Shown here in pieces: positions 4,029 to 32,411 of a stretch of 64,000 nucleotides of DNA; positions within the stretch are counted from its first letter, which is position 1, and each line of letters opens with the position of its first letter. The translations under genes and the position numbers were made by a program. The notes beneath the pieces are model-generated. The model made no database searches. It saw nothing but the letters and a program-made list of their open reading frames with translations, and was not told where the DNA came from. The DNA comes from an uncultured Acidobacteriota bacterium (GTDB lineage Bacteria; Acidobacteriota; Thermoanaerobaculia; UBA5066; Gp7-AA6), in contig CAWALG010000041.1 of assembly GCA_963782815.1 (NCBI GenBank), positions 184,310 to 248,309 of the forward strand, read 5' to 3'.

Positions 4029-4971
4029 ATGTCCGAAATGGACGCGACATCGTCGAGAGAGACGGCGCCGGCCGCCGCGGACTCCGCTCTGCGCACGCTC
4101 TCCGCGCTTTTTGTGTCGTTCGCCCCGCGCAGTGGGTCAAGAACCTGGTGCTGCCGCTGCCCTTCCTGTTCGGGCGGGGCCTGGGGGAGGTCCGGGGATG
4201 GGTTCTCGCCGCCTCCGGCTTCGCCGTTTTCTGCGTCATTTCGAGCGCGATCTACCTCGTCAACGACGTCAAGGACCGCGAGCGCGACCGGGCGCACCCG
4301 GTGAAACGGCGGCGGCCGCTCGCGACCGGAGAGCTCAAGGTCGGGACGGCCCTGACGGCGGCCGCCGTGCTCCTGGCGGCCGGCCTTCCCGCCGCCTTTC
4401 TCCTGAGCCCCGGGTTCGGGCAGTGGTGCCTCTTCTACGCGGCGCTCATGGTCGCCTACTCCCTGTGGCTGAAGCACGTTCCGTTCCTGGAGGCCCTGAT
4501 CGTGGCGGCGGGGCTTCCCCTGCGGGCGCTCGCGGGGGCGGCGCTCGCGCAGGTGCCGGCATCTCTGTTCCTCATGGGATGCGCGTACCTGCTGGCGCTC
4601 TTCCTCGTCGTCGGCAAGCGGCAGTGGGAGCTTCAGAACGCGGGCAACATCTCATCGGCCGAGCACCGCGCGGTGCTCGCCACCTACGGGGCGAGGGGCT
4701 CGACTTCCTGTTCGTGACGTCCGCCCTCACGGTCGTGGCGGGCTACGCCGCGTACAGCGTCATCCCCTCGACACTCCAGCGGCATGGCGGCCGCTCCTTC
4801 GCGCCGACGATCCCGTTCGTGATCCTGGGCGTGGCGCGCTATATCCGACTGGTTTACCGGCGCGGGGGAGGGGGAAATCCCACCCGGGCGCTCCTGATCG
4901 ACGACCCGTGGCTGCTCTTGATCGTCGTGGGATGGGTTCTCACGGCGGGAGGAATCATTTATGGCCGATGA
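4029..4971 (+). CDS. UbiA-family decaprenyl-phosphate phosphoribosyltransferase (DPPR synthase, Rv3806c-like); 2 frameshifts
   Basis: RPAQWVKNLVLPLPFLF and YLVNDVKDRERDRAHPVKRRRPLATGEL match the RPxQWVKN / NDxxDxExDRxHPxKRxRPIAxG signature of the DPPR-synthase branch of UbiA. C-terminus EGLDFLFVTSALTVVAGYAAYSV...IIYGR in another frame. Shifts near 4110 and 4700. Confidence 0.7.
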
Positions 4972-5713
4972 GAAGGCTCCCCGCTTCGGCGTGGCATTCC
5001 TCGCCTACAACGAGGAGGAGCTGATCGCGAAGACGGTCGAGGAGGCCGTCACGGCGCTGTCGGCCGTCCCGGGGCTCGACTGGCGCGTCCTGGTCGTGAA
5101 CGACGGCAGCCGCGACAGGACGGGGGAGATCGCCGAAGGGCTGGCGAAGAAGGACCCGCGGGTCTCCGTCGTGCACCACCAGGGAAACAAGGGTTACGCC
5201 GTGGCGACGGAGACGGCCCTGCGGAACACGCCGGGAGAGGTCGTCATGGTCGTGGACGGCGACGGGCAGCACACGATGGCCGACGCTCCGCGCTTCCTCG
5301 CGGCGATCGACGAGGGCGCCGACGTGGTCTTCGGCTGGAAGAAGGAGCGCCACGATCCTCTGCCGCGCCTGGTCCTCTCCAAGGGCCTGAACACCCTTTC
5401 GCGCTGGATCCTGGGCTCCCCCCTCCACGACATCAACGGCGGCTGCCGCGCCTTCCGCCGGGAGGTCGCGCGCAAGCTCGAGATCCGCCACCGGATCAAT
5501 TTCGTGGGGGACGAGATCTTCGCGCGCTGCCGGATCGCGGGGTGGAAGGTCTCGGAGGTCGTCGTGCGCCACTTCCCGCGCGAGGCGGGGCAGAGCATCC
5601 ACCGTCCCTGGAAGATGCTCGGCACGATCAGCCGCGTCCTGCGGTATCTCTTCGAGCTGCGCGAGGAGATCCGCCGCGCGGACGCGTTGAAGCGGGTCGT
5701 GGCCGCGCGATGA
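4961..5713 (+). CDS. GT2-family polyprenol-phosphate glycosyltransferase (DPM1/ArnC/GtrB-like)
   Basis: Intact 250 aa ORF. VAFLAYNEEELI...VVNDGSRDRT...VDGDGQH GT-A fold motifs. Start overlaps upstream gene by 11 nt and stop overlaps next start (ATGA at 5710). Confidence 0.8.
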   Translation: MADEKAPRFGVAFLAYNEEELIAKTVEEAVTALSAVPGLDWRVLVVNDGSRDRTGEIAEGLAKKDPRVSVVHHQGNKGYAVATETALRNTPGEVVMVVDGDGQHTMADAPRFLAAIDEGADVVFGWKKERHDPLPRLVLSKGLNTLSRWILGSPLHDINGGCRAFRREVARKLEIRHRINFVGDEIFARCRIAGWKVSEVVVRHFPREAGQSIHRPWKMLGTISRVLRYLFELREEIRRADALKRVVAAR

Positions 5714-7070
5714 AAGGAACCGTCATCCTCGGCGCGGGGCCGACGGGCCTCGGCGCCGCATACCGCCTCCGCGAGCGCGGCGAGGAGGATTTCGAGATCT
5801 TCGAGCGATCCGACCGGGTCGGCGGACTCGCCACGAGCTTCCGCGACCCGAAGGGGTACACGTGGGACGTCTCGGGCCACATCATCTTCTCGGGCTACCC
5901 CTACTTCAACGCATTCCTCGAAAAGGTCCTCGGCAAGGACGGGATGCGCCGCATCGACCGGGAGAGCTGGATCAAGTTCGAGGACCGCTACGTGCGCTAC
6001 CCCTTCCAGAATCACCTCTCCTCCCTGCCGGAGGAGGCGATGCTCGAGTGCCTCGTCGGCCTGATCGAATCCCAGACGATCGACAGGGACCGCGCCTTCC
6101 GCAACTTCGAGGAATGGGTGCTGGCGAAGTTCGGCGCGGGCGTCTCCAAGCACTTCATGGTCCCCTACAACCTGAAGGTCTGGTCCACGCCCTTGAACCG
6201 CATGGGCTTCTACTGGATCGCCGAGCGGGTCAGCGTCGTGGACTGGAAGAAGGCGCTGGACTCGACGCTGCGCCCGAAGGTGACCGACTGGGGTCCCAAC
6301 GCGACGTTCGGATACCCGGCCACGCAGGGCACCCTGGGGCTGTGGCTCGCGCCGCTCCCCTTCATCGGGGAAGAGAAGGTCCATTACCGCAAGCGCGCGG
6401 TCTGCGTGGACGAGGAGAAGCGCGAGATCGAGTTCGCGGACGGATCGAAGGCGCGCTACGAGCGGCTCCTGACGACGCTGCCGCTCGACGCGTTCGTCCC
6501 GCGCCTGAAGCACGCGCCGGAGCACGTGCGGCAGGCGCGCGAAGACGCTCCTCTTCAACCGGCTCTTCTCCGTCGGCGTCGGCCTGAAACGCCCCTCGCC
6601 TTCGACGAAGAACTGGATCTACTTCCCCAATCCGAAGACCCCGTTCTACCGGATGACCTATCTCTCCAACTACTCGCCCGACGTCGTGCCGGGCGGAGAC
6701 ACCTCCCGGTACTGCTCGATCCTGACGGAGACGACGTACTCGGGTTTCCGACCGCTTCCCGAAGGGAGACTTCGTGAAGGCGGTCCTCGACGGCCTCGTA
6801 GCCGAAGGGATCCTGGAGCCCTCGGACCTGCCGCTCGTCGAGTCCACCTATCTGATCCACGCCGGGCACGCCTACCCGATCCCCAGCGTGGACCGGGACG
6901 AGGCGCTCGCCGTGATCCACGCGTACCTCGAGCCGCGGCAGATCTTCTCGCGCGGCCGTTTCGGCGCCTGGAAGTACGAGATCGGCAACCAGGACCACTC
7001 GCTGATGCAGGGCGTCGAGCTGGTGGACCGCTGGCTCGACGGCACCGAAGAAAAAGTCTTCCGCTCCTAG
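5710..7070 (+). CDS. FAD-dependent oxidoreductase, UDP-galactopyranose-mutase/amine-oxidase-like; 2 frameshifts
   Basis: MKGTVILGAGPTGLGAAYRL Rossmann GxGxxG. Body continues in frame 2 from about 6540 (KTLLFNRLFSVGVGLKRP...RMTYLSNYSPDVVPGGDTSRYCSILTETTY) and frame 0 from about 6760 (KAVLDGLVAEGIL...IHAGHAYPI...FGAWKYE). ATGA-coupled to the GT2 gene. Confidence 0.65.
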
Positions 7071-7097
7071 TTCGGGCGCCGGCTTCCCATTCTCGGA

Positions 7098-7180
7098 CCT
7101 GTCATCCCGAGGAGCAAAGCGACGAGGGATCTGCTCCGGGAAATCCGGAAGCCCGGAGCAGATCCTTCGCTTCGCTCAGG
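7098..7180. repeat. Palindromic repeat, family A (CCTGTCATCCTGAGCGAAGCGAAGGATCTGCTCC arms; translates to ...SFASLRMT... in spurious ORFs)
   Basis: cctgtcatcccgaggagcaaagcgacgagggatctgctccgg ... ccggagcagatccttcgcttcgctcaggatgacaggg. Copies also at 41855, 46773 (half) and 60036. Confidence 0.8.
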
Positions 7181-7201
7181 ATGACAGGGTTCGGAGCAAT
7201 G

Positions 7202-9744
7202 TTACTTTGCGACGGCGGAGCGGTCCCAGGTGAAGAGATGGTTCGTGCCGCGGTCCGAGACGGTGACGCGGCCGAAGACGTCGAGCACGATGCCGGTCGG
7301 CGCCTTGGTGTCCTTGTCGGGTTTCCAGGAGTGCTTCAAGACCCCGGAGGAGTCGTACTGCGCGATCCGGCCCGCCACGGAGTCGGTCACGAAGACGTTG
7401 CCGGCCGGGTCGATCGCGATGTAGGGCTCGGTATAGAAGTCCTTCCAGCCCGAGACCGGGAACTGCCGGAGGAACTTGCCTTCTCCGTCGAAGACCTGCA
7501 GGCGGTGATTGCCGGTGTCGCAGACCTAGATGTTCCCGGACGGATCCGCGGCGAGGCCGACGGGCTCGACGAACTGGCCGGGGCCGAGGCCGTTGCCGCC
7601 CCACTCGGAGAGCTTGTTGCCCTCCCGGTCGAACCGCACGATCCGCTTGTTGCCGGTGTCGGCCACGTAGAGGATGTCCTTGGAGGCGAGGATGGCGCGG
7701 GGTCCGAAGAAGCCCCTCTCCGTGTCGATGAAGGAGGCGACGAACTTCCCCTCGGGGTTGAAGTGCACGATGCGATGGTTCCAGGTGTCGGCGACCCAGA
7801 TCTCGCCCCTGGAGTCCACGTTCAAGCCGCAGGGGTCGTTCAACTGCCCGTTCTCCTGCCCCTTGGTGCCGAACTGCCGCACGAACTGGCCGTTGCCGTC
7901 GAAGACCTGGATGCGGGAGTTCTTGGTGTCCGCGACGTACAGGTTTCCGCGCGAGTCGGCCGCGAGGCCCCGCGGCTCCGCGAACTGGCCCGGCCCCGAG
8001 CCCTGTCCCCCCGACTCCTTGGCGGCCGGGATGACCGCGGCCTCGGAGGGATAGTCGCGCGCCGTCGTGTCCTCCACCTTGACAGTGATCGGCGCGAGCA
8101 GTCCGGTTCCCTCGTCCAGGTCCTTGCGGACGTAGAACATGGCGTCCTGCGACCCGATCGGGCTCCAGATCTCGTGGAAGATCCACCACTGCAGGAAATC
8201 CGAAAGCGTGGGCCGGGCGACGGCGCCGGGCTCGGGGGGCTGGGTCTTCTCGGGGAACCACCAGGCGCGGATCGGCACGCGCTTGGCGTTGTACCGGTCC
8301 GCGAGCTGCTTCTGGAGGGCGCCCTGGGGATCCCAGTCGGCCACGATGATCGGCGTCGAAGCGTCTTCGACGCGGCCGACCCAGCGCGTCGTGACGTTGC
8401 GCAGGTACCAGGTCAGCGGCCAGGTCGCCTCGCCCGCGACCGTGATCACCTGCTGTCCCGGCGGGGTGCGCAGCTTCGCCTTCTCCACGGATTCGAGCGC
8501 GCGCGTCAAGTCCCAGGTCGTCTGGACGTAGGCGAGCATCTCGGCGTGGCGGGGCTCCTTCTCGAGGTCGTAGGCGCCGTAGCGGAAACACGCGAGCAGC
8601 ATTCCTCCCGTGTTGAGGGCCAGGAGCACCGCGGCGATCGCGAGCGCGAGGCGCGAGCGCCGGTTGCCGCGGTCCTGCCACAGGTCGGCCAGGCCGATCG
8701 CGGCCAGGATCGTCAAGGGAAGGAGAGGGTGAACGGTCAGCCAGGGGACCTTCTCGCGGGCCCAGCCGTAGATCGCCAGCGACCCGATCGTCCAGAACAC
8801 GAGGAAACCGAAGAACGGATCGCGCCTGCGGACCCGGAACGCGAAGAACGCGGCGAAGAAGATGCCGGTCTCGTAATAGAAGAGCTGCGGGAAATAGTAG
8901 TACCAGGGGCCGGGAATGCGGGCGATCGCGTGCTGGCCCATCCAGTACTTGACCGCTTTCGGGATCGCCAGCCAGTCGCCGGGATACTTGCCGAAGGCCG
9001 AGTACATCAGCGCCCAGATGAAGAGGAAGACGACGCCCGCCGTGACGAGGGGAACGAAGTGCCGGCGGACCCACGCGACGGTCGAGCTCGCCGCGGCGCC
9101 GACCTTGCCGCCCAGAGAGCGCTCGAGAAAGACCCAGACGCCGAAGAGCACGAAGAGAACGCCCGTCATGTAGGCGTTTTCCTTGGTCACCCCCGCGAGC
9201 GCGAAGAGGACCGCCGCGGTCGTCAGCCAGCGCGCCTGTTCGGTCTCCAGGAAGTACCGGAACGCGAGGATCGTCCCGAGCGTGAAGACGAGCGAATAGA
9301 GGTCTTCCCGGATGAACCGGGAGAAGTACGCCATGTGCGGTGAGATCAGGATGAGCCCCGCGAAGACGGCCGCGGCCGGCTTGCCGATCCACCGCGCAGG
9401 GGCCAGGCGAAGCCGATGAGGATGAGCCCGAACACCGCGGGCAGGAAGCGCGCCGTCGCGTTGGTCACGTTGGGGAGGCCCACGATCTTGTAGACGAGCG
9501 CGTTGGCGTAGTAGAGGAAGGGGCCGTGGTAGGCGGGGTCGTACCGCCAGGTGCCGTCCTTGGCCAGCGTGTGGGACTGGAAGGCGTGAATGGACTCGTC
9601 GTGGTGGAGCGGCCGGTCCCCCAGCCGGTAGAACCGGGTGAAGAGGGCGAGGACGAGCACCGTCAGAATCAGAGGAAGACGGCCGGGTGCCCGCGCCCCC
9701 GCCGGTTGCGGCACGGCGCCGCCCTGTGTCTCCGAGTTGGTCAC
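7202..9744 (-). CDS. GT-C-like integral membrane protein (TIGR03663-like, PMT/ArnT superfamily N-terminus) fused to C-terminal NHL-repeat beta-propeller; 1 frameshift plus in-frame TAG
   Basis: N-terminus PLILTVLVLALFTRFYRLGDRPLHHDESIHAF (frame of 9744), continues RRWIGKPAAAVFAGLILISPHMAYFSRFIREDLYS after a shift near 9392. Five NHL repeats (GNLYVADTKNSRIQVFD, GEIWVADTWNHRIVHFN, ILYVADTGNKRIVRFD, GNI-stop-VCDTGNHRLQVFD, GNVFVTDSVAGRIAQYD). TAG at 7526-7528 sits where Tyr is conserved. Confidence 0.65.
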
Positions 9745-12700
9745 GGACGTCTTCCTCCTGGGAGTTCGATTTTCGAGACCCTATTGTTTCCGGAGTTGAT
9801 CACGTATAGCAAACGGTTCTTTCGGTCGATCGCGACGCCCGAGGGCCGGGAGAGCTCCTGGCCCCCGTCGTCGCGGTCATAGGTCTTCTTCAGCGCGCCC
9901 GAGGGCTCCATCTGGAGGAGGACATTCCGGGGCGGATTGGACACGTAGAGGGTTCCGTCGTCGTCGACGTCGAGCTGCGGCTCGACTCCCATTTTCCAGT
10001 CGGAGATCGGGATCTCCCGGACGAAGTGCCCGGCCGGGTCCAGGACCTGAATCCGGTGGTTTCCCGCGTCGGCGATGAAGAGGGAGCCGTCCCGGCCGGC
10101 CGCGATTCCCACGGGGTCGGAGAACTCCTCCGGTCCCGATCCGAAGCGGCCCAGGGTGCGCAGCTGCTTGAGCTCCCCGTCGAAAGCCACGAGGCGCTTG
10201 TTGCCGGTGTCGGTGACCCAGACCGTCCCGCCGGGGGCCACGGTGATGCCGCGAGGGCCGAAGAGGTCTCGCGCGGTCGCCTTCCACTTGCCGTCGAGGG
10301 TGAAGGCCTGGACGCGCCCGTTCCACGTGTCCGCCACGTAGACCGCGTCGTCCCGGATCGCCACAGCGCACGGCTCCCGAAGACCGAATGTGCCGCTGCC
10401 CCTGCCGCCCCATCCGCCCAGAGATCCGCCGACGGCGTCGAAGATTCTCAGCCGCGAGTTGCCGAAATCGGCCACCCAGATCCGGCCGCGGCCGTCCACG
10501 GCGGCTCCCCGAGGCTCCTTCATCCCCGAAAAAGGAGTCCCCCCCGCCTCGGCCTTGTCCCGGATGACCGGCTGCTCCTCCGGCTCATCCCCCGTATGCG
10601 CGGGCGCCTGAGGAGCCGCGACCGTTTCGTGGACCGGTGCGGTGATGACGTCCTGGGAGTCTCCGCCGACGACGCGGTAAACCTGGGCCTCCTGGTTGGC
10701 GTAGGCGGGTCGGAAGAGGCTGGAAGTGTTCTCGAACTTGCGCAGGCCCGCTCTCGGGTAGGTCTGCCGCTCGAGCCATCCGACGTAGACGTAGCCGACG
10801 TGGTAGCGGCGCAGCAGGCGTTCGACGCTCGCGCGATCGGCCGACGAGTAGATGTCCTGCACGGCCTGGCGTCGCGCGGCGACCTCCGTCTCGGGATTTC
10901 CGCGCTGCTTGACGTGATGTTCCCAGCCGAGGACCGTCGGGAACCCGGTCAGCATCGAGATCCGCGAGAACTCCTGGTAGGAGCCCCCCTGGGCCTCCAG
11001 GACGACGGGGGTCCCCGGGAGCGTTCGCCGCAGCCAGGCAACGGCGTGGTATTCGCCCGGGCGCAGTTTCTCGAGATAGGCAAGCCCGTCCAGGGAGGGC
11101 GCGCCGGGGCCCCCCTCCGGGCGCGAGGGATTGCCTTCGGCGAAGATGCCTCCCCGGGCTGCCGTGACCGACGTGAAGAGGCAGCACGCCAGCAGAAGAA
11201 CGAACACGCCCCGAAAGACCCCGGGCCAGTTCTCGAAGGACCCCGCGCGGTGGGACGAGCCGAAGACCAGGACGGCCGTGGAGATCGCGAGGAGAGGCCA
11301 GGCCTCGGCGTACAGCTTGAAGAACGTGTTCATCCGGTCGTAGATGAACATCCGCTGCGTGAAGAGCACGAGGAAGAATGCGGTCGCGAGAAAGCCGAGT
11401 GCCAGTCGATCCTCCGGCCGCTCCGCGAGCCAGGGGACCGCGAGGAGAAAGAGGAGGATGCCGGCGACGCAGAGGGCTTCCGCGGAGAAGGCCCCGGCCG
11501 CGAGCGCGAGCGGCGCGACCAGGAAGGCGAGCCGACGCGGCGCTTCGTTCGAGGTCCCCCGGGCCAGGCGCGCCGACGCGGAAACGGCCCACCAGGCAAG
11601 GCAGAGAAAGAAGAAGAGACCGAAGTGTGTCAGGACATCCACGCCTCGCGCGCCCCGCTCCGCGTTCCAGCCGAAACCGGGGGTGCCTCCCCCCCGGACC
11701 CAGAGCGGGCGGACGGCCGCCAGGGCCGCCGCGGCGGCCGCCAGGAAGGAAATTCCGGAGCTCACGAAGGCGAGGATGCGGGGCCGGGGATCCGAGAGGG
11801 CCGTCAACAGGAAGAGGAGGACGAAGAGGCCGGCCAGCAGGGGAACGTCCCACGCGTTGGTCAGGACCTGGGCCGCCGCGGCGAAACCCAGCACGAGCGC
11901 GCAGAGGATCCTCCGCGGCGCGCGGGAGGCCGGGTCCGCGTGCGCCCGGACGAGTTGTAACGCGCACGCCGCGACGAGGAGAAACAGGGGGAGAGCCAGC
12001 AGATGCGCGTGGAGATCGGCGAAGAGGAGGCTCCAGAGCGGGTACTCGTTGATCGTGTCGGGCACGACCCTCGAGGTGGCCCAGAAGTAGTGCCAGTCGA
12101 GGTGTCTCGGGCCCCCCTTCAGGCGCTGGTTGATCAGCCACTCGCGCAGCCCCGAGAGGTTGCCGAGCATCAGCGTGAACCCGAGTCCCGCCAGGCCGGC
12201 GCGCAGCCTCCCTCCCCAGTCGCGCGCGAGGCAGAACGCGCCCTGGGCGATCGTTCCCCCGAGGAGTCCGAACGCCAGGTTGAACGTGAAGCGGGTGGAC
12301 AGCGTGGTCAGGAGCGTCAGGAAGGCCACCATCTCCTGCCCGAAGACGTAGTAGCCCAGAGGCGCACCCGAAAACCAGGGATCGGAAGACGGAAGGGTGC
12401 GGCTGCGCACCAGGATGTTCAGGATCGAAAAATCCATCGGCTTCTCGCCCCAGTAGATCTCCGGGTTGAAGGAGCGCAGGCCGAGGAACAGAACGAACCC
12501 GAGGCCGAAGACGATCTCCCCGGCCAGGATCGCACGCCGGCGCCGCCGCCAGAACTCCGCCATCCTCCCGCCGCGCAGGAGAAGGCAGAGGGCGCTCGCG
12601 ATCGCCACGAGCGAGAGACTCGCCCAGCACACCAGGCTGCCCTGCGAGAACACGCGGTACCGGACGAGAAGTGTCGCCAGGAACGTGGAGAGCGCGAGAC

Positions 12701-13022
12701 CGAGCACTTTCGCGAACCCCGCGCCGCGGTCGTCCAGGTAAGGGAAGAGCGCGTAGGCGAGCGGGAGCGTGGCGATTCCGATGACGACGATCGCGAAGAG
12801 CCAGATCACGGCGGCCGCGAAAGAATTCACCGGCAGCTCGCGGAGGGGGCGCGGCGCGGGAGCCGGCTCGGGCGTGGTTCCCGTGTGCTGCGGCGCCGGG
12901 GCGGCCGGGCGAGTGACGCTGGCGGCCGGCGAAACGGCTCCGCCGCCGTCCGCCGCCGGCGCCGCGCCGACAGAGCCGAGGAGAAGGAGAAGGAGGAGCG
13001 CGCCTGTCAGGGTCAGGCGCAT
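9741..13022 (-). CDS. DUF2298 (chlor_Arch_YYY-like) large integral membrane protein fused to C-terminal NHL-repeat domain, intact 1093 aa
   Basis: Motifs EIYWGEKPMDFSILNIL, MNTFFKLYAEAWPLL, FPTVLGWEHHVKQRG typical of DUF2298. C-terminal 350 aa with 6 NHL repeats (GRIWVADFGNSRLRIFD, AVYVADTWNGRVQAF, TVWVTDTGNKRLVAFD, SLFIADAGNHRIQVLD...). 4-nt overlap with the downstream TIGR03663-like gene. Confidence 0.8.
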   Translation of the reverse strand: MRLTLTGALLLLLLLGSVGAAPAADGGGAVSPAASVTRPAAPAPQHTGTTPEPAPAPRPLRELPVNSFAAAVIWLFAIVVIGIATLPLAYALFPYLDDRGAGFAKVLGLALSTFLATLLVRYRVFSQGSLVCWASLSLVAIASALCLLLRGGRMAEFWRRRRRAILAGEIVFGLGFVLFLGLRSFNPEIYWGEKPMDFSILNILVRSRTLPSSDPWFSGAPLGYYVFGQEMVAFLTLLTTLSTRFTFNLAFGLLGGTIAQGAFCLARDWGGRLRAGLAGLGFTLMLGNLSGLREWLINQRLKGGPRHLDWHYFWATSRVVPDTINEYPLWSLLFADLHAHLLALPLFLLVAACALQLVRAHADPASRAPRRILCALVLGFAAAAQVLTNAWDVPLLAGLFVLLFLLTALSDPRPRILAFVSSGISFLAAAAAALAAVRPLWVRGGGTPGFGWNAERGARGVDVLTHFGLFFFLCLAWWAVSASARLARGTSNEAPRRLAFLVAPLALAAGAFSAEALCVAGILLFLLAVPWLAERPEDRLALGFLATAFFLVLFTQRMFIYDRMNTFFKLYAEAWPLLAISTAVLVFGSSHRAGSFENWPGVFRGVFVLLLACCLFTSVTAARGGIFAEGNPSRPEGGPGAPSLDGLAYLEKLRPGEYHAVAWLRRTLPGTPVVLEAQGGSYQEFSRISMLTGFPTVLGWEHHVKQRGNPETEVAARRQAVQDIYSSADRASVERLLRRYHVGYVYVGWLERQTYPRAGLRKFENTSSLFRPAYANQEAQVYRVVGGDSQDVITAPVHETVAAPQAPAHTGDEPEEQPVIRDKAEAGGTPFSGMKEPRGAAVDGRGRIWVADFGNSRLRIFDAVGGSLGGWGGRGSGTFGLREPCAVAIRDDAVYVADTWNGRVQAFTLDGKWKATARDLFGPRGITVAPGGTVWVTDTGNKRLVAFDGELKQLRTLGRFGSGPEEFSDPVGIAAGRDGSLFIADAGNHRIQVLDPAGHFVREIPISDWKMGVEPQLDVDDDGTLYVSNPPRNVLLQMEPSGALKKTYDRDDGGQELSRPSGVAIDRKNRLLYVINSGNNRVSKIELPGGRRP

Positions 13023-13257
13023 GCGTCCCGCAGGGTCCTCAACGAATTCTCGGTGGGTTCCAACTGGTTCTGCCCCGGCGACAGGCGAAACAGGAGCGGA
13101 GATGACTCGAGCAAGGCGCGCAAGCGGTCACCGAGGCACCTCCTGAGTATACGGGAGGACGTCTCAGCGGGGAAGTCCTCTCCCGGCGTCGCGCGAGCCG
13201 GTTCTTCGCCTGCCGAAACGCAATCACATTTCTGGTACCCTCCGAAGGAGAACAGCG

Positions 13258-15851
13258 ATGCAGCCGGAAGCGAGCCGAACCCGCTGGTGGTGGGGAATTC
13301 TGTTCCTGTTCGCCGTCTCCGTCCGGCTGTTCCGCGTGAACTGGGACCAGACCCACTTCTTTCATCCGGACGAGCGGGCCATCGGATTTGCCGTCGACCG
13401 CCTCTCCTTTTCTCCCCTGCAGCTGAATCCGCATTTCTTCGCCTACGGCTCCCTCCCCCTGTACCTGATCAAGGTCGTCACGGCGATCGCGGGGAACTTC
13501 CGACAGGCGCTTCGCGGCTACGACTCCAGCATCTTCGTCGGACGGGAAATCTCGGCGGTCCTCGGGGCGTTGACCGCTCTTCTCCTCGCGATGCTCGGCG
13601 CGCGCCTGTACGGACGGCGGGTCGGCTTGCTGGCCGGCGTCCTGATGGCCGCCGCGGTGCTTCACGTGCAGAACTCGCACTTCGCGACGAGCGACGTTCC
13701 GCTGACCTTCCTGATTCTGCTCGCGCTCTTCTTCCTGATTCGCGTCGCGGAAACGGGGAGGCTGCGGCACTATCTCGCCGCCGGGATCGCGGCGGGCCTC
13801 GCGATCGCGACGAAGTTCAGCGCCCTCCCGATCTTCCTCGCGATCGGGATCGCAATTCTCTACCGGTGGGTCGTCGAGGGACGCAGGTTCCGGACCGTCT
13901 TGAACGGAGGCCGCGCTCCTCCTCTTCGTCGCCGTGGGATTTGCCGCCGGCCAGCCGTACGCGATCCTCGACTTTCCCGCGTTCCGCAACGACATCCTCG
14001 AGCAGAGCCGGATGGTGCGCCACGCGGGGATCTTTCCGTACACGAACCAGTACATCGGCGTTCCGAAATATCTCTACGACCTCGGCCAGATGGTCCTCTG
14101 GGGGATGGGACCGCTGCTCGGCCTGGCGGCCGTGGCGGGGACCATCCGGTGCTGCGTGGACACAATCCGGAAGCGCCGGATCGCCGAGGTCCTCCTCCTC
14201 GCCTGGGTCCTGCCGTTCTTCGCGATCACCGGTTCCTTCGACGTGAAATTCCCCCGATACCTCCTTCCGATCTACCCGATGCTGATTCTCTGGGCCGCCG
14301 CCGGGCTGGCGGCCTGGGCAGGCCGGAGCCGGATCGGGAAACTGGCGGCCGCCGCCGTCCTCGTGGCGACCCTGGCGTGGCTGGCGGCCTTCCTGCGGAT
14401 CTACACGCGGCCCCACACGGTCGTCACGGCGTCGGAGTGGTTCTATCGGAACGTCCCGAGGGGGGCGAAGGTCGCCAGCCAGCACTGGGATGAAGGATTC
14501 CCCTTCCCTCTTCCGGGAGACAGGAATCCGGATCGGTACCACATCGAGAACCTGGGCTACTACGAGCCGGACACGCCGGAGAAGATGATGCAGATCTGCA
14601 GGGAACTGGCCGCCGCGGACTACGCCGTCTTCCAGACCAAGCGGATCTATGGCGCCGTCACCAGGGCGCCGGAGAAGTTTCCCCTGACGACGCGATACTT
14701 CTCCCGGCTCTTCGCCGGCGATCTCGGGTTCACGTTGACGAACGAGTTTGCATCCCGCCCCGGGCTCTTCGGAATCGAGGCGCCCGACGAGCTCGCGGAC
14801 GAGTCCTTCACGGTCTACGACCATCCGAAGGTCATCGTGTTCCGCAACACGGCGCACCTGCCGTCCGGCGTCATCCAGCAGCGAGTGCTCACCGGCGAGC
14901 CGTCTCGCCGCATGACCCGGCGCGACATCCTGCTGGCGAAGCCTTCACGGGGGCAGGCGATAGAGCCGGCCGGCGGGAATCCGGGCGAGGAGCCGGCTCC
15001 CACAGCAGCGGCGGTCGGAGACTCCCGTTCCCGCTCCCGCCGCCCCTGCCGAGGCGAGGCCTCTCGGGAAGCTCGACCAGCCGCGCGGGATCGCCTTCAA
15101 CCGGGCGGGCCATCTGCTGGTTTGCGATTTCGGCCAGGCGCGGATCCAGGAGTTCGACCAGGCTCTGAAGCCCGTGTCGGCATGGGGCCGGCCCGGAACG
15201 GGACCGGGCGAGTTCAAGGAGTTGGGCGCGGTCGCCGTCGCGCCGGAGGGAACGATCTACGTGGCCGACACCTGGAACAGCCGGGTCCAGGAATTCGACG
15301 CAGCGGGCAAGTTCCTGCGCGAGTGGAAGAGCGAGTTCTTCGCTCCGCGCGGCATCGCCGTCGGACCGGCCGGGCGGGTCTTCGTGTCCGACACGGGGAA
15401 CCACCGGATCGTCCGCTTTTCGGGGGAGGGCGCGAAGGAGAAGGAGTGGGGAGGCCGCGGCTCCGAGCCCGGCCAGTTCTTCGATCCGATGGGCCTCGCC
15501 GTGGCGGGCGACGGGAAGGTGTTCGTCTGCGACAACGGCAACGGGCGCCTGCAGATCTTCGACCAGGACGGCCGGCCGCTCTCGGCCTTCAAGGTGCCCG
15601 GCTGGAGGCGGGAGGTGTTCTCGGAACCGCAGGTCGCCCTGGACAAGGGGGGAACGCCGTGGGTCACGGTGCCGCTCGAGAAGGAAGTGCGCCACTACTC
15701 CCCGGATGGAACGCTCCTGAAGACGATCCGGAGCCAGGACGCCGATCACGCGAAATTCGAGCGGCCCATGGGGATCGCCGTCGCTCCCGCCGGCGACGCC
15801 GTGTTCATCTCCGACCTGGAGGGCGGACTCTACCGCTTGCCCGCGCGCTGA
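13258..15851 (+). CDS. GT39/ArnT-like (PMT-family) GT-C glycosyltransferase fused to C-terminal NHL-repeat domain; 2 frameshifts
   Basis: N-terminal TM region with FHPDERAIGF (the DE motif of the PMT/ArnT family) and ATKFSALPIFLAIG. Body in frame 2 from about 13910 (GFAAGQPYAILDFPAF...). NHL repeats from about 15050 in frame 0 (GHLLVCDFGQARIQEFD, TIYVADTWNSRVQEFD, RVFVSDTGNHRIVRF, KVFVCDNGNGRLQIFD). Confidence 0.65.
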
Positions 15852-15887
15852 CGCGCCTTCGACTCGGAGTTGCCCGCGATGCGGGCC

Positions 15888-18737
15888 TCACGGGATCAGC
15901 ATCCAGTCGAACGAGTGGCGGTACCAGCGCAACGCGTCGACAGTGCCCTCGGGCAGAGGCGGGCCGGGGACCGCGTCCGGCGGGGGGCGCAGCGCGGCCG
16001 GGGGCACGATCGATTCCCGCTGGCCCGGCGGCGTCCACATCCAGTCGATGCCCCCCGGACTGTGCACGACGCGGTACTTGAGCGCGACCTCGTGCGGGCC
16101 CTTCGGAAGCAGCACGGCGGGGCCGCGCTCGGTCTTCTCCTCGTCGCCCCGGGTCGTCCAGAGCGGCTGGCCGTCGAGCGTCATCGCCACCGTGCCGCCG
16201 TGCGTGCGAAACCCGAAGGAGTAGCTCCCGTCCGCCGGGGCGAGCAGCGTTCCACGCCAGGAGGCCGTCAACTCGCCGTCGAGGCCGACCTCCGAGCCGA
16301 GCGACATCGACGCGATGGTCGAGTCGAGCTGCCTGCGGTCGGGGCCGCTTGAACCGGAGTAGATACCGAGGAGCCCCTGGGGGGGGCCGTCCACGGCCCA
16401 CAGCTCCGAGGCGCTCGTCCGCCGCCACGCCTCTCCGGGCGCGTCTCCTTTCCACTCGAAGAGGGCGGGGCGTCCGGGCGCATCCACCGCCGCCTCGAAG
16501 ACGATTCGATGGTCGCCTCCAGGCAGACTGACGGTCGTCTCGGCGAAGGGGTCTCCCGGCGCCGCGCGCAGGATCTCGCGCCCGTCCACGCTCACGCGCC
16601 CGGCGGCGCGGAACGAGGCGTTTCCGTAGCTGCGCACGCGGAGCGCGGCGCTCCAGCGCATCGGCGCCGGGAAGCGCGTCCAGCCCTCCGGCGCGTCGCC
16701 GAGAGCCGCCACGCGGACGGCGCCCTTCCCGGCGGCCGAGACGAGGGCGCCGCGAAACGTCTCCCACCGGGCGAGCGGCACGCGGTACACCGTCACGACC
16801 TCCCCATCTCCCGGGATGCGGGCGTCGAAGCGGGTGCCGCCCGGATAGACCTGCTCGAGATAGGGAAGGTAGTAAGGCTGACCGCTGTAGAGAAGGAAGG
16901 AAAGATCCCGGTCGGCCGGGATCGGGAGCGGCAGATCGAGACCCGGCGCCGGCAGGCTGATGCGGTTGGCTCGCGGCGCCAGCAGTCTCACCCATCCGGA
17001 GTTCACCATGTGCGCGGAAGCGCCGAGCGTGATCGCCCAGCCGTTCTTTCCCTCGGCCGCGACCGTCTCGCCCTCGATTCGGTTCCACGGCCAGCGATCG
17101 GTCGCGGCGTAGGAACCGAAGTAGAAACCGAGCTGGCCGGCCGCGATGGCGACCGCGGCGCCGCCCGCGAGCACCGTGCCGAAGAGACGAGCCGGCTTCC
17201 CGGACCCTTCCGCGGCGGAGACGAGGCCGATCCGCCGCGCCGTCTCGTCGAGCACGAGTCCCGCGAGGAGACCGAGGACCGGGATCGCCGTGGCCATGCG
17301 GTGCATGTTCGGCGTTTCGACCGTTACGATCATGCCGACGAACCCGAGCCAGAACCAGAGCGCGAGGAGGAAGAGACGGGCGTCCCCCGCCTTCGCCATC
17401 GCGGCGAAGAGTCCCAGGAGCGTGAGCGCCGCGAGGACCGGCGGGAACAGCGGCCGTTCCGTCGGCCAGGTCAGGTTCTGGTCGAGGTAGCGGTTGAAGA
17501 AGCCGAGAGAGTGCTCGACCTGGGCGGCGAGGAGTCGCGGGGTGCTCCATTCCGGATGGAAGTAGGGGAGCCGGCGTGCGTTTTCCCGGATGAACACGGT
17601 CGTCTCCCTCGCGCGCAGGGTCAGCTCCTGCGGAAGGCGCACGAAAACGAGGAGAAACGGCGCGACGGCAAGCAAGGACGCGAACGCGGCGATCGCGAGG
17701 CCGCCGGCCGTGCGCGCGCGAGTGCCTTTCGGCCCGCGCAGCAGCAGCGACAGGCCGAACGGGATCGCGATCAAGCACCAGAGACGGCCCGTCGGGTAGA
17801 AGTAGATCGAAAGCCCCCCGGCCAGGCCCGCCACGATCCAGGCCCACGCGCGGCCGCGGCGCGCGGCCTCGAGGAAGGCCGCCGCGCTGATCGCCCAGAG
17901 CGTCTGCGTGGGTTGCGCTTCGGTCGTTATTCTCGAGAACTGAATTGCGGCGCCCATCGAGGCCAGCAGCCCGCCCGACAGCAGGCCGGCGCGCCAGCCG
18001 AAGTGCCGCGCCCCGAGAGCGATCACGATCGCGACCGTCACGACGCCGCACAGCGCGCCGAAGACCCTCGCGCCGCCGACGTCGAGGCCCGAGACGGACA
18101 TCACGGCGGCGAGCAGTCGGAAGTACACCATGCTGATGTGGTACCAGCCGAAGCCGAAGAGCCCGGTATGGTTGAGGCCGCGGACGATCTGCATCGCGGG
18201 CGCGGCGCGGTCGCCCTCGTCCGGGTTGATGCCGTACGGCACGCGCGCCAGGCCCACCAGCCGCGTGACCGCGGCGACCCCGATGATGACCGCGATCGCC
18301 GCGATCAAGGCGGTGCGGCCGGCCCGCGTCGTCGGGAAACGCGCCCGGCCCCACCGCGCGGGGATGTCCAGGCGCCCGCCGGCGAAGAGCCCGCCGAGGA
18401 GGACGAGGACCAGGCTCACGATCCACCAGCCCCCCGCCGCGCCCTGCCTGTCGCTCCAGAGGGCGCGCAGGCCGACGACGCAGGCGATCAGCGAGGCAAC
18501 AAGACCTCCGGCCAACGCGACGAGTCGCCAGGAGCCGCGCGCCGCCGACTCGCCGGCGAAGCCGGGCAACGGGAACGCCTCCGGCGCGAACACCACCGCG
18601 GCGGCGATGTAGAGCGCCAGGCTCGTCCAGAAGGAGTGGCCGGTGCGGATCACCGCTTCCGCCGCGCCGGCCAGGAGCAGCGCGAAAATACACGCGGCCA
18701 GAGGCCGGAAGCGGCGCGCCGCAGTCGAGGACGTCAC
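15888..18737 (-). CDS. GT39/ArnT-like GT-C glycosyltransferase with C-terminal PA14-like domain, intact 949 aa
   Basis: About 550 aa polytopic N-terminus (INPDEGDRA, GLFGFGWYHISMVYF, many TM helices) and a C-terminal soluble domain GLLGIYSGSS...LTASWRGTLLAPADGSYSFGFRTHGGTVAMTLDGQPLWTT resembling PA14/GLEYA. Confidence 0.7.
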   Translation of the reverse strand: MTSSTAARRFRPLAACIFALLLAGAAEAVIRTGHSFWTSLALYIAAAVVFAPEAFPLPGFAGESAARGSWRLVALAGGLVASLIACVVGLRALWSDRQGAAGGWWIVSLVLVLLGGLFAGGRLDIPARWGRARFPTTRAGRTALIAAIAVIIGVAAVTRLVGLARVPYGINPDEGDRAAPAMQIVRGLNHTGLFGFGWYHISMVYFRLLAAVMSVSGLDVGGARVFGALCGVVTVAIVIALGARHFGWRAGLLSGGLLASMGAAIQFSRITTEAQPTQTLWAISAAAFLEAARRGRAWAWIVAGLAGGLSIYFYPTGRLWCLIAIPFGLSLLLRGPKGTRARTAGGLAIAAFASLLAVAPFLLVFVRLPQELTLRARETTVFIRENARRLPYFHPEWSTPRLLAAQVEHSLGFFNRYLDQNLTWPTERPLFPPVLAALTLLGLFAAMAKAGDARLFLLALWFWLGFVGMIVTVETPNMHRMATAIPVLGLLAGLVLDETARRIGLVSAAEGSGKPARLFGTVLAGGAAVAIAAGQLGFYFGSYAATDRWPWNRIEGETVAAEGKNGWAITLGASAHMVNSGWVRLLAPRANRISLPAPGLDLPLPIPADRDLSFLLYSGQPYYLPYLEQVYPGGTRFDARIPGDGEVVTVYRVPLARWETFRGALVSAAGKGAVRVAALGDAPEGWTRFPAPMRWSAALRVRSYGNASFRAAGRVSVDGREILRAAPGDPFAETTVSLPGGDHRIVFEAAVDAPGRPALFEWKGDAPGEAWRRTSASELWAVDGPPQGLLGIYSGSSGPDRRQLDSTIASMSLGSEVGLDGELTASWRGTLLAPADGSYSFGFRTHGGTVAMTLDGQPLWTTRGDEEKTERGPAVLLPKGPHEVALKYRVVHSPGGIDWMWTPPGQRESIVPPAALRPPPDAVPGPPLPEGTVDALRWYRHSFDWMLIP

Positions 18738-18799
18738 GGCGCGGTCAAGTTAGCACACCCCGTTCCGAGGAGACGTCTCCCGCCCGCGAGTCTCCGTCT

Positions 18800-20753
18800 T
18801 CAGGGCCGCCGGAAAATGTAGAACGCGATCTCTCCCGGGGCGTTTGCCGGATGGGACTCGATGACGGCATCGGGGAACCGCGACCGGAGGGCCGCCACGA
18901 TCGAGTCCTTGTCCGGAGAGAGAACGAGCGTCCTGGAGGGATCGAAATGGCCCTGCTCGACCTGCGCGGGGTCCAGATCTCCGACGAGCTGTCCCGGCGC
19001 GAGGAAGCGGAACTCACGGTTGAGCGCCCACCAGTACGGCACCCCGACGGAATACGCATGAAACTCGGGCCGCGCCGCGAGGTACCGCGCCAGGTGTCCG
19101 GCGCTCGTGGCCCAGCTCCTGAAACTCTTCTCGTACCAGGTCCAGTTCGCAAGGCCGGTCAGCGTGAACGCGATCCCCAGGGCAACGCCCGGCACGAGCC
19201 GGCCCAGCCGGTCTTTTGTCTGAAAAGAGCGCCTCGACCGAGGCAGAGAGGCGCTCGAGAGCCACGCCGCCCAGAAGCGCCGCGGGGACGACGAGAATCA
19301 CCAGGCGTGGAAAGAACGGAGCATTGATCGTCAGAAAGCAGCCGAGGAAGAGGATCATCAGGAGCCAGCCCAGGGAGAGCGCGCTGCCGAGCCGGCGCAA
19401 GGTGAAAAGGGCATAGCCGATCCCGAGAGCCAGTGCCATGGCGCTGAAGTCGTCCAGGAACGCCCGCCGGGCTCCAAACTGAGTGCTGGCGTCCGTATAG
19501 GTCCAGAACAGGAGGGCGCTTCGCCGGGCCTGCTGGGCGAGCACGCCGGCGAGCGACGTCACCTTGTAACCGGACTCCATGTGATGAAGGGGGTCCGGGG
19601 TGAACACGAGCACCTCTCGACTGCGGCTGACGAAGGCTTCGCGGTCGCGTACGAAGAGGAAGAGCATCGGCCCCAGCACGATGACGATCGCGAGAGCCAG
19701 CAGAACGAGTTCGCGCCATCGGGAAAGGAGCCACTCGCGGCTCCTGCATACGATGAGCAGGACGGCCATCGCGGCGAGGAATACGACGGCGCGACCCGAG
19801 TAATACATCTCCAGGTCGAACGCGATGAGCGCGCCGCTCGCCACCGCCGCCAGGCCGCTGCCGGACCTCAAGGCGCGCACGAGCAGATACAACGCCCAGA
19901 CCGTGAAGAAGACCGGATCGATGTATGCGCAAGTCCGGCTGAAATGGAGGTGCGTGTACGAAATCGTCATCAGGGCCGCCGCCAGAACACCTGCTCGAGG
20001 ACCGAAGAGGTCGCGGCCCAGGAGGTAGACGGCGACGATCACCAGCAGGCCCTCGATCACCCCCGCCAGGTAGAGGCCGGTGAGACCCGTTCCCGCGATC
20101 TTCATAGTCAGGGCCGCGGGCATGAATCCCATCAACGGAATGACCGCCCAGCCGTACGCAAACAGGTGTTTCTCCTCGCCGAGAGCGATCGCGCGCGCCT
20201 GCAAGCCGAAGTCGGCGTAGTCCCCGTCGAGGTTGTAAGGCAAAGTGCCGAGGTGATACATACGGCTGGCGAGCGCCACGGCGAAGAGCAGGACGAGAAC
20301 CGCGGCCTGGACCCTCCCGCCGGTGACCCGCTCGTGCTGACCTCGTGAGCGCCACTGGCCGACGAAGAGCGCGAGAACGCTCACGAGCCAGGCGGCATCG
20401 ACAACGCGGTCCTCTTGCGTCTTTACGAAGCGAAGCATCGCGTAAGCGGCCGAGAGCAGGCTCAGGAGCGTCCAGGAGGACGTCCATATGTCGAGCCGTG
20501 TGCGCGATCGGGGCGGCCTCGCCGGGATATCGAGGGCCGCTTCCGGAGACGCCGGCTGGCGGGCGAGCGCGCCAAAGAGGAGAGCCGCGGCCAGGAGCGT
20601 CAATCCGCCGGAGAGGTGCCAGCGCGCCTGACCGAGCCTGGAGGTGTGTTGAACCAGGCGGGCACCGGCGATCGCGATGGGAATGGCCGCGAGCATCCCG
20701 GCGACCCGAAGAAGCGAAGGGCGCGAATCCGTCACGGGAGTTATGGGAGACAC
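18800..20753 (-). CDS. GT39/ArnT-like GT-C glycosyltransferase paralog; 1 frameshift near 19200
   Basis: N-terminal 530 aa in frame of 20753 (LGTLPYNLDGDYADFGLQARAIALGEEKHLFAYGW...), C-terminal 130 aa in ORF 18800..19195 (VGVPYWWALNREFRFLAPGQ...). Confidence 0.6.
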
Positions 20754-20772
20754 GCGGTCATTCGATGGGAGC

Positions 20773-21255
20773 CTAACGTGGCGAGATCGTCAGATCCTTC
20801 GTCCCCAACCCTTTCCATGAAGTCGGAGTGGTGCTCGAGGCTTCGCGGCCGAACATCTTCTCCACGCGATATGCACCCGGAGGCCAGGACGACGTGTCTT
20901 TCACGGCGAACCAGACGAAGCCGCCCGACGACAGAGGCTTCTGCTCTTCGCCCATCCGCACGTCGCCGTCGATGCGCTTCCAGATCACCCTGGCGGACGC
21001 TCCGGAAGGCGCGTTTCGAACCACGAACGCGATGTGGATCGGGTCGCCTGCGGTGAACTTGTCCGTCTCAGCCGTGACCTTGCCGTCCGCCGCGGCGGTC
21101 CTGCCGATCTGGAACTTGTCTTCGTACGTGTCCGGGTTGTTCGAGCGGGGTTGAGAGCTCGCGTCGCCCGACGCGGACGAGCCGGAGCCCTTGCCTCCAC
21201 ACGCGCCGCACAGGAGAGCGAGGGAAAGAGCCAGCGCGGTCATGATGGTCTTCAT
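20773..21255 (-). CDS. Small secreted lipoprotein-like protein
   Basis: MKTIMTALALSLALLCGACGG signal peptide with Cys, then low-complexity Ser/Gly linker and a small beta-rich domain. Sits between two GT39 paralogs on the same strand. Confidence 0.6.
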   Translation of the reverse strand: MKTIMTALALSLALLCGACGGKGSGSSASGDASSQPRSNNPDTYEDKFQIGRTAAADGKVTAETDKFTAGDPIHIAFVVRNAPSGASARVIWKRIDGDVRMGEEQKPLSSGGFVWFAVKDTSSWPPGAYRVEKMFGREASSTTPTSWKGLGTKDLTISPR

Positions 21256-21353
21256 TCGATTCGCCCGTCTGTTTTTCGTTCTCGGCGGATCTTAACAGGT
21301 TTTTGCCGCGGTCCCGGTCCTGGAGTCTTTCCGACGGCGACGGGATGGCGAAA

Positions 21354-26315: not shown

Positions 26316-26489
26316 GGGACCGTGAAGGTCCCCCGCGGCAAGCTCCGACCAGCGATACGGGATCTTGTGCCAAATGGGCGGATCGTGCTACGTTCGCCGA
26401 AGACCCCGGTACGACTGCCGCTGCGGAGGTGAGTATTGAGGCTCTATTTGACCGGATGGGCAAGGATTCTCCAGGACACGGTCGTTCGC

Positions 26490-27056
26490 ATGCCAGGAAA
26501 GACCGTTCCTGGGCTCTGGCGGACCCGTCGAGACTTCCTTGGCGTCCTGGTGGGAGCCGTCCTCCTGGCGGCCTTCGGGCTCTTGGAAGGGTGCAAGTCT
26601 GAAAAGCCTTCCTCCGAATCATCCGAAGCCATGCCTGTTCAAACCCCGACCAATCTCGGCGACATGTCGGTCAAGGGCGTCTCGCAAGGGTGGGGGACGC
26701 TCCACTTCGACCTCAACGTGACCGGCACGCCCCTCTCGATTGGCGGAAAGGGGTACAAGACGGGCCTCGGGACCCATGCGATCTCGCGGATCGAGATCTC
26801 CTTCCCCGCCAACTACAAGACGTTCACCGGGTCGTGCGGCGTGGACGACGCTGTGGAGAACCGCGGCTCGATCGTGTGCAAGATCCTGGACGGCCAGAAG
26901 GTTCTCTTCGAGAGCCCGGTGATGAAGGGGAAAATGAAAGCGGCGGACTTCAGCGTCCCTGTGAACGCGCTGACCGGCCTGGTCCTGATCGTCGAGAACG
27001 GTGGGGACGACATCGATTCGGACCACGCGGACTGGGTCAATCTGAGCCTCAAGTAG
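26490..27056 (+). CDS. NPCBM (NEW2) carbohydrate-binding-module lipoprotein with Tat-like signal
   Basis: RRDFLGVLVGAVLLAAFGLLEGC (twin-Arg plus lipobox Cys). SIGGKGYKTGLGTHAISRIEISFP...GSCGVDDAVENRGSIVCKILDGQKVLFESP...DHADWVNLSL match the NPCBM/GH98-associated module. ORF track starts at 26436 (alternative start). Confidence 0.75.
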   Translation: MPGKTVPGLWRTRRDFLGVLVGAVLLAAFGLLEGCKSEKPSSESSEAMPVQTPTNLGDMSVKGVSQGWGTLHFDLNVTGTPLSIGGKGYKTGLGTHAISRIEISFPANYKTFTGSCGVDDAVENRGSIVCKILDGQKVLFESPVMKGKMKAADFSVPVNALTGLVLIVENGGDDIDSDHADWVNLSLK

Positions 27057-32380: not shown

Positions 32381-32411
32381 TCTGACATGAGCGATCGGAT
32401 TCCCTTTCCGC

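Follow-up and report, generated by a model that had tools for sequence, protein, structure and literature searches.

Four membrane proteins with C-terminal NHL or PA14 tails in a putative glycosylation locus of Thermoanaerobaculia (Acidobacteriota)

We analysed a 64,000-nucleotide stretch of contig CAWALG010000041.1 (positions 184,310 to 248,309), referred to here as the window, from an uncultured soil member of the Thermoanaerobaculia (phylum Acidobacteriota). Its G+C content is approximately 68%. Between positions 7202 and 18737 lie four large genes, here called G1 to G4, which encode membrane proteins ending in soluble tails: NHL β-propellers in G1, G2 and G3, and a PA14 region in G4. Coordinates, strands and domain content, as established by Pfam and NCBIfam scans, agree with a preliminary description of the same DNA; G1 and G3 are interrupted in the window, and were scanned as proteins with the breaks repaired.

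7202..9744, minus strand: G1, TIGR03663 membrane part (approximately 8389-9669), soluble domain, low-complexity linker and six-blade NHL propeller (approximately 7205-8017); interrupted
9741..13022, minus strand: G2, DUF2298/TIGR03662 membrane domain (approximately 10671-12821), flexible linker and six-blade NHL propeller (approximately 9753-10532); intact, 1093 residues
13258..15851, plus strand: G3, PMT/PMT_2 GT-C-type membrane and soluble domain (approximately 13258-15030), low-complexity linker and six-blade NHL propeller (approximately 15066-15848); interrupted
15888..18737, minus strand: G4, four extra N-terminal helices, GT-C core (approximately 17109-18347), periplasmic domain, β-sandwich (approximately 16398-16757) and PA14 (approximately 15993-16397); intact, 949 residues

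G2 and G1 overlap by the 4 nucleotides GTGA, shared between the G2 stop and the G1 start, and the operon linkage proposed on this basis is conserved in relatives. G3 adjoins G2 and is divergently transcribed. A scan of positions 6900-19400 for promoters and terminators gave no signal above chance.

All four proteins had been described as GT-C-type glycosyltransferases. This assignment stands for G4 (fold), for G3 (profile similarity to G4) and, less firmly, for G1 (Pfam match); no link was found for the DUF2298 protein G2. G4 matches PMT_2 (40.9 bits) and PA14 (PF07691, 32.8 bits; cut-off 24). Its AlphaFold2 model, built from a 52-sequence alignment, has a predicted local distance difference test score (pLDDT) of 92 and a predicted TM-score (pTM) of 0.89. 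In this model the membrane domain has the GT-C fold: Foldseek matches it to ArnT (5f15, E = 3.6e-9; TM-score 0.55 normalised to the ArnT chain), with further matches to EmbC/EmbB, AglB, AftD, STT3, PglB, Pmt4 and ALG9. The acidic motif D173-E174-G175-D176, which follows the first core helix, is invariant in the 52 sequences.

The C-terminal 290 residues of G4 match the tandem PA14 pair of RsgI, a clostridial anti-sigma factor domain-containing protein (6qe7/6qdi; Foldseek E = 9e-12 to 1e-10 over approximately 290-310 columns), as well as the PA14 domain of MpAFP and other PA14 lectin domains; the relationship to 6qdi is also detected by phmmer (E = 2.8e-5). The calcium-site 'DD' of lectin-type PA14 domains, a consecutive Asp pair, was not seen when the G4 tail sequence was read by eye. 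In the model, the β-sandwich region that contains PA14 packs rigidly onto the remainder of the protein.

G3 exceeds the thresholds for both PMT (44 bits, cut-off 22.7) and PMT_2 (55 bits, cut-off 26.1), and its tail scores 100.6 bits against NHL. Comparison of the G3 and G4 membrane profiles with hhalign gave a probability of 97.4% (E = 9.5e-12), by which measure G3 is homologous to the GT-C family. The acidic motif of its first external loop, HPDER, is kept in the G3 family profile and in the consensus of fused relatives described below. Intact G3 orthologues are 850-894 residues long.

G1 is a clear TIGR03663 protein (311.7 bits, cut-off 126; model positions 4-431 of 435) with an NHL score of 125 bits. 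It contains the sequences HHDESIH and AYHGPF, which we take to be the DE and HGP motifs that define this family near the N-terminus in its TIGRFAM description. A Pfam PMT_2 match (37 bits, cut-off 26.1) weakly suggests that G1 too is a GT-C protein. The G1-G4 profile match is weak (25.7%), and phmmer searches of the PDB with the G1 and G3 membrane domains were uninformative for a GT-C link.

G2 matches TIGR03662 (chlor_Arch_YYY) with 465 bits (cut-off 300; positions 2-726 of 727), DUF2298 (PF10060) with 269 bits (cut-off 27.8) and NHL with 119.5 bits; the YYY motif that names TIGR03662 reads GYYVFG in G2. Profile comparison of DUF2298 with the G3 and G4 membrane domains yielded hhalign probabilities of 0.3-2.9%, against 97.4% for the G3-G4 control. 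A search of Pfam at E <= 10 returned DUF2298 alone, and a profile search of the PDB found nothing. Both fold searches with the whole G2 model listed only propeller matches, so that the membrane domain was not compared in them. A suggestive hint that DUF2298 belongs to the GT-C superfamily comes from the predicted topology, which places the family-invariant acidic and His residues E193, D197, D336, H338, H340 and D562 in outer loops.

The three propellers are paralogous (approximately 38-40% identity), have six blades each when degenerate blades read by eye are counted, and are carried on flexible linkers rich in Pro, Ala and Glu. The G2 tail has the NHL fold. All 44 aligned homologues have it, with the same mean identity as in the membrane domain (63% versus 63%), and the propeller is an integral part of G2. 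The G2 model (pLDDT 84, pTM 0.69) comprises, in order, a signal-peptide-like helix, a disordered Pro/Ala stretch, 16 membrane helices, an α/β domain (residues 629-790), a linker and the six-bladed propeller. The disordered part of the linker (residues 794-812) lies within a low-complexity stretch of approximately 40 residues. The preliminary description had envisaged a propeller that docks above the active site; the G2 model lends this no support, as the propeller is tethered by the disordered linker of approximately 20-40 residues.

The tails had also been expected to follow the last membrane helix and to be periplasmic, and topology prediction agrees. We judged topology from the helices of the AlphaFold2 models, which cover G2 and G4, together with counts of loop charges. 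If the N-terminus of G2 is taken as outside, the Arg-rich loops (for example WRRRRRA, residues 158-164) fall on the cytoplasmic side, and since the number of helices is even the tail is predicted to lie in the periplasm. Beyond residue 543 G4 has no membrane helix, and its PA14 region is therefore predicted to face the same compartment as the soluble domain at the C-terminus of ArnT. That domain is periplasmic. The tail of G3 is likely to be periplasmic because it is attached at the point where fused relatives run into the outside-facing start of DUF2298, and for G1 a periplasmic tail would follow from paralogy alone. For the four proteins together, it is probable, with good confidence, that the tails are in the periplasm.

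A search with G2 recovered 685 protein clusters, and DUF2298 and NHL occur together in all but one of the 120 listed. In a scan that used one genome per species, a relative of G2 is encoded in 418 species-level genomes. We examined gene neighbourhoods for the 80 best-matching of these 418 loci, to which all counts out of 80 refer. Nearly all are from Acidobacteriota/Thermoanaerobaculia, with a few from Binatia and Candidatus Tritonobacter, and nearly all of the matches extend through the propeller. G1 directly follows G2 as a tandem in most of these loci, and 45 of the 80 encode an intact NHL-tailed G1 orthologue (one unbroken match that starts no later than residue 40 and ends no earlier than residue 835). 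Stand-alone PMT proteins with an NHL tail, 850-894 residues long, form approximately 30 clusters, and PMT_2-PA14 proteins like G4 occur in Acidobacteriota and Chloroflexi. Chance is excluded by the recurrence of these architectures, without breaks, across many related genomes, and the architecture is almost certainly real.

In many relatives the DUF2298-NHL gene and the G1 orthologue are separated by a second NHL propeller, which is either an open reading frame (ORF) of its own or a tandem domain. The loci L006, L007, L009, L014, L016, L023 and others are of this kind, with the propeller approximately 200-1200 bases downstream of the G2 orthologue; the window lacks it.

Most G2 relatives at 55-60% identity are approximately 1640 residues long. 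Their alignment consensus shows that the extra 550 N-terminal residues are a G3-like domain (WD..H..HPDER...), ahead of DUF2298-NHL. PMT_2-DUF2298 fusions without NHL are common in Chloroflexi. Genetic and fusion linkage joins G3-like domains, DUF2298 and Agl23-like proteins, and the G3-like-DUF2298 fusions together with the adjacency of G3 and G2 indicate that G3-like GT-C domains and DUF2298 work together. By sequence comparison, the G3 gene of this sublineage is one that has split off and gained a propeller of its own. Where most relatives have the whole G3-like GT-C domain, residues 1-55 of G2 (12860-13022) consist of a signal-like helix and a Pro/Ala stretch, which looks like the scar of gene fission.

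The architecture had been put forward as uncharacterised. Literature searches on DUF2298, TIGR03662/TIGR03663, GT-C with NHL and GT39 with PA14 found no characterisation and no paper on a GT-C/NHL fusion. These proteins are nonetheless not exotic: they are common in Thermoanaerobaculia metagenome-assembled genomes (MAGs), and automatic annotation at the Joint Genome Institute (JGI) labels the PMT-NHL proteins 'ArnT-like glycosyltransferase / sugar lactone lactonase YvrE' or 'ArnT-like glycosyltransferase / beta-propeller fold protein YncE'. One PMT_2-PA14 protein appears in passing in a genome-context table for Chloroflexi (PMC8756737). An extracytoplasmic binding module on a GT-C enzyme is known in itself, and the fusions are abundant in metagenome databases. 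For an NHL propeller in this role, on three different membrane protein families of one locus, we found no published description.

The genes around G1 to G4 bear on the possible sugar donors of these proteins.

4064..4968, plus strand: UbiA-family prenyl-phosphate phosphoribosyltransferase-like gene, frame-broken; conserved neighbour of G1, in 25 of 80 loci
4961..5713, plus strand: GT2 of polyprenyl-phosphate-sugar synthase type (Glycos_transf_2, 104.6 bits); in 38 of 80 loci, median identity 83%
5710..7067, plus strand: amine-oxidase/PRK07208-type flavoprotein, in three frames in the window; conserved neighbour, in 40 of 80 loci
19014-20753, minus strand: PMT_2 membrane protein (within 19014..23429)
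20773-21255, minus strand: small lipoprotein, 160 residues, between the two PMT_2 genes, with a 39%-identical counterpart in L001, the nearest relative fetched
21354-23429, minus strand: PMT_2 membrane protein (within 19014..23429)
27169-27951, minus strand: DprE2-like short-chain dehydrogenase (DprE2 model 196 bits, cut-off 250)
27951-29309, minus strand: DprE1-like FAD oxidase (479.7 bits, cut-off 500), downstream of the second DUF2298 gene
approximately 29361-31520, minus strand: second DUF2298 gene, without NHL, frame-broken (tblastn)

Towards higher coordinates, G4 is followed by the two PMT_2 genes, a methyltransferase, a second GT2 of ArnC type, an epimerase, an NPCBM protein, and the second DUF2298 gene with the DprE1-like and DprE2-like genes. 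The best NCBIfam match of the UbiA-like protein is decaprenyl-phosphate phosphoribosyltransferase (182 bits, cut-off 207). The GT2 at 4961-5713 is closest to the models for dolichyl-phosphate hexose transferase, PgfS and ArnC, all far under their cut-offs. Each of the three models of the decaprenylphosphoryl arabinose (DPA) pathway is matched over practically its whole length. For the DprE1-like and UbiA-like proteins a family of this pathway scores best; the DprE2-like protein scores higher, and over cut-off, with the generic short-chain dehydrogenase model PRK07102 (297 bits). All three (DprE1, DprE2 and decaprenyl-phosphate phosphoribosyltransferase) fall short of their NCBIfam cut-offs and so are treated as homologues only. 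The second DUF2298 gene looks like part of an operon with the two DprE-like genes, an arrangement that hints that DUF2298 uses or handles a polyprenyl-phosphate pentofuranose.

Several other features of the window stand apart from these genes. An NPCBM/NEW2 carbohydrate-binding domain (121 bits) makes up almost all of a small protein, secreted or anchored, that is encoded at 26436-27056 (plus strand), between the GT2 and epimerase genes on one side and the DprE2-like gene on the other. Further GT-C-type genes at 19014-23429, 34349-35515 and 45466-46671 comprise three PMT_2 genes and one weak PIG-V-like match, and the 64-kb window holds at least nine GT-C-like or DUF2298 genes. At 43831-45459 (minus strand) a single 542-residue ORF combines LplA-B_cat with lipoyl synthase (LIAS_N and radical SAM), an apparent LipB-LipA fusion; it lies near the gene for a 2-oxoacid dehydrogenase E2 component (46883-48526).

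The interpretation towards which we lean is that the locus is a conserved Thermoanaerobaculia system for glycosylation at the periplasmic side of the inner membrane, in which the tails hold the acceptor. On the cytoplasmic side, the two GT2 proteins (ArnC/GtrB/Agl22 type), the UbiA-type phosphoribosyltransferase and the DprE1/DprE2-like pair would load sugars, a hexose and possibly ribo- or arabinofuranose, onto polyprenyl phosphate; it is from the homologies of these neighbours that we infer lipid-phosphate-linked donors. The lipid-linked sugars would be flipped across the membrane, possibly by G1 as an Agl23 family member, and consumed by the periplasm-facing GT-C enzymes G3, G4 and the other PMT_2 paralogues, whose first external loop has an acidic motif (HPDER in G3, DEGD in G4) that is invariant. 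DUF2298 in G2 would be part of the same machine, possibly also using lipid-linked sugars in the periplasm. By binding the acceptor, which would be an envelope glycan or glycoprotein, the propellers and the PA14 region would keep it close to the active site and thereby concentrate it there or confer specificity. We give even weight to this role of the tails, which has its model in the way EmbC, AftD and GT136 use their carbohydrate-binding modules.

Several observations weigh against this interpretation. The donor-pathway homologues are all below their equivalog cut-offs, and the DprE1/DprE2-like genes lie approximately 15 kb from G2, with no homologue in the 10-kb flanks of the related loci, a span shorter than this distance. 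No profile or fold comparison tied DUF2298 to GT-C, and the topology rests on models and the positive-inside rule. The family of G1, moreover, is reported as a lipid-linked-sugar flippase and not a transferase (PMC11182771).

This last point leads to the alternative that survives best, in which G1, and possibly G2, are translocases of lipid-linked sugars or accessory proteins of Agl23 type, and sugar transfer is the work of the PMT_2 proteins G3 and G4 only. NCBIfam names TIGR03663 'flippase activity-associated protein Agl23'; purified Agl23 of Haloarcula hispanica is reported to have translocated lipid-linked oligosaccharide in liposomes (PMC11182771); and DUF2298 has no detectable relation to GT-C. 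Set against this, G1 exceeds the Pfam PMT_2 threshold and has its DE and HGP motifs at GT-C-like positions, while the invariant acidic and His residues in the predicted periplasmic loops of DUF2298 would suit an enzyme. We regard this division of labour as possible but somewhat doubtful, and it is compatible with the glycosylation reading of the locus as a whole.

The tails might instead serve protein-protein assembly, either of a G1-G2-G3 complex or by docking to a periplasmic or outer-membrane partner, or might act as sensors, with no acceptor binding. NHL domains, those of TRIM proteins for instance, are well known for interacting with proteins and RNA, and the extracellular NHL domain of PknD is regarded as a sensor. 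The three paralogous tails sit on proteins that are linked or fused in relatives, some of which have the extra propeller between G2 and G1, and this would suit an assembly role. A separate assembly module seems unneeded, however, where the G3-like domain is covalently fused to DUF2298, as in most relatives, and the long flexible linkers fit substrate capture at least as well. We therefore consider assembly or sensing unlikely. Similarly improbable is a catalytic role for the propellers, in which they would resemble lactonases or lyases (SGL, virginiamycin B lyase or PAL type) and would modify the sugar, the lipid carrier or the acceptor.

As the preliminary description had flagged, G1 and G3 are not single ORFs in the window, whereas G2 and G4 are unbroken. 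We compared the window with L001, a 1.2-Mb ENA contig (83% identity in G2) with the same gene order, in which the orthologues of G1 (857 residues) and G3 (862 residues) are both intact.

9394..9400 (near 9397), minus strand: frameshift in G1, 1 nucleotide missing relative to L001 at the LR/RWIGK junction (three-frame translation and DNA alignment)
7526..7528, minus strand: in-frame TAG in G1, inside NHL blade 4 (GNI-stop-VCDTGNHR)
13900..13915 (near 13908), plus strand: first frameshift in G3, 1 extra base relative to L001
14983..15040, plus strand: second frameshift in G3, net +1, in the low-complexity Pro/Ala-rich linker ahead of the propeller

At the TAG site L001 has V (GTC) and related blades mostly have Y, so that one substitution accounts for the stop. 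We considered stop-codon reassignment and rejected it, because this is the only such event in a genome of 68% GC and the other ORFs end in normal TAG, TGA and TAA stops.

Searches of the window with L001 proteins (tblastn) found the flanking amine-oxidase-like flavoprotein gene in three frames, the UbiA gene spread over two frames, a Ser/Thr kinase gene in three pieces, and one further PMT_2 gene and the second DUF2298 gene also frame-broken. Altogether there are at least 11 frame changes in approximately 32 kb, in otherwise well-conserved genes; examples of the affected regions are 1622-3736, 4064-4968, 5710-7067, 18800-20753 and 29361-31520. In a further public assembly, from a near-identical organism, it is G2 and G4 that are split. 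Long-read MAGs (record names 'MFD...') make up many of the nearest genomes, and some of these MAGs also contain sporadic frame changes.

Given the broken frames of neighbouring genes and the uninterrupted orthologues in related genomes, assembly errors, namely indels and a substitution, are on this comparison very probably the cause of the breaks in G1 and G3. That G1 and G3 are instead true pseudogenes, leaving only G2 and G4 functional and the four-fusion set partly decayed, is highly unlikely: G1 does have a frameshift and a TAG, G3 does have two frameshifts, and the indels lie outside obvious long homopolymers, but at least five other genes within approximately 32 kb are broken relative to intact orthologues, the breaks move to G2 and G4 in the near-identical organism, the nearest long-read MAGs have such frame changes as well, and the broken genes retain 83-89% amino acid identity to intact orthologues over their full length. 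The practical lesson is that the assembly is rich in indels, and broken ORFs in this window are suspect and should not be taken as biology. Pieces of a LigD-type DNA repair ligase (3'-phosphoesterase and ligase domains) are also spread over several frames at 31490-34309 (plus strand), and are probably one gene split by the assembly errors.

The closest parallels to these proteins are the mycobacterial arabinosyltransferase-type proteins EmbA/B/C and AftD, in which periplasmic soluble modules come after a multi-span GT-C core; EmbC, EmbB and AftD are also among the Foldseek matches of the G4 model. The polyprenyl-phosphate pentofuranose donors of Emb and AftD are made by UbiA with DprE1/DprE2, homologues of which lie near this locus. 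The locus differs in its phylum, in having NHL or PA14 tails in place of Emb/AftD-type carbohydrate-binding modules, and in the sub-equivalog status of the donor homologues. Kelly et al. (2024) describe the combination of a UbiA-type polyprenyl phosphoribose synthase, optional DprE1/E2-type epimerases and a GT-C enzyme as a widespread extracytoplasmic pentofuranose system, in which, as in EmbC and AftD, a C-terminal carbohydrate-binding module of the GT-C enzyme binds the acceptor glycan (PMC11127046). The GT136 protein ORF12 of Citrobacter youngae shares with the present locus a GT-C enzyme with a C-terminal module, a UbiA-type synthase and optional DprE1/E2 types (PMC11127046). In contrast to that system, the present locus has many GT-C paralogues, together with DUF2298 and an Agl23-like protein, its tails are propellers or PA14 and not an Ig-like carbohydrate-binding module, and no MATE or GtrA flippase was identified at this locus.

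G1 resembles H. hispanica Agl23, which is paired with the GT2 protein Agl22, in belonging to TIGR03663, and the nearby GT2 weakly matches the haloarchaeal dolichyl-phosphate hexose transferase; unlike Agl23, G1 comes from a bacterium and carries an extra propeller of approximately 270 residues as its tail. G3 and G4 resemble ArnT (GT83) and PMT (GT39) in matching PMT/PMT_2, both with an acidic motif in the first external loop, but G3 scores only 31 bits against the NCBIfam ArnT model, whose cut-off is 567. Other GT-C enzymes have extra modules of a different kind: eukaryotic PMTs carry a MIR domain in a loop and not a C-terminal propeller, and TMTC proteins have TPR domains. NHL in PknD of Mycobacterium tuberculosis and tandem PA14 in RsgI of Clostridia serve signalling on a kinase and an anti-sigma factor, respectively, whereas here the same modules are found on membrane proteins of putative glycosylation.

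DUF2298 proteins and their TIGR03663 and PMT_2 partners are large membrane proteins, widespread in Acidobacteriota, Chloroflexi and Archaea, that have hardly been characterised biochemically. As a series, the fusions (G3-like-DUF2298, then G3-like-DUF2298-NHL, then separate propeller-bearing genes) join these families in one pathway, and the NHL and PA14 tails, being soluble and expressible, could serve as probes for the acceptor. A bolder version of the glycosylation reading, which we think rather unlikely as a whole, is that Thermoanaerobaculia make a pentofuranose-containing (arabinan-like) periplasmic envelope glycan or glycoprotein from DPA-like donors with a GT-C/DUF2298/Agl23-like machine, in which NHL propellers would be a new class of acceptor-recognition module and DUF2298 a new glycosyltransferase or polymerase family. 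The value of the finding would rise if DUF2298 proved to be an enzyme, or if the phylum were found to make a pentofuranose-containing envelope polymer. Were the DPA-like donor pathway to hold true, arabinan-type envelope chemistry would extend beyond the Actinobacteria to a major soil phylum.

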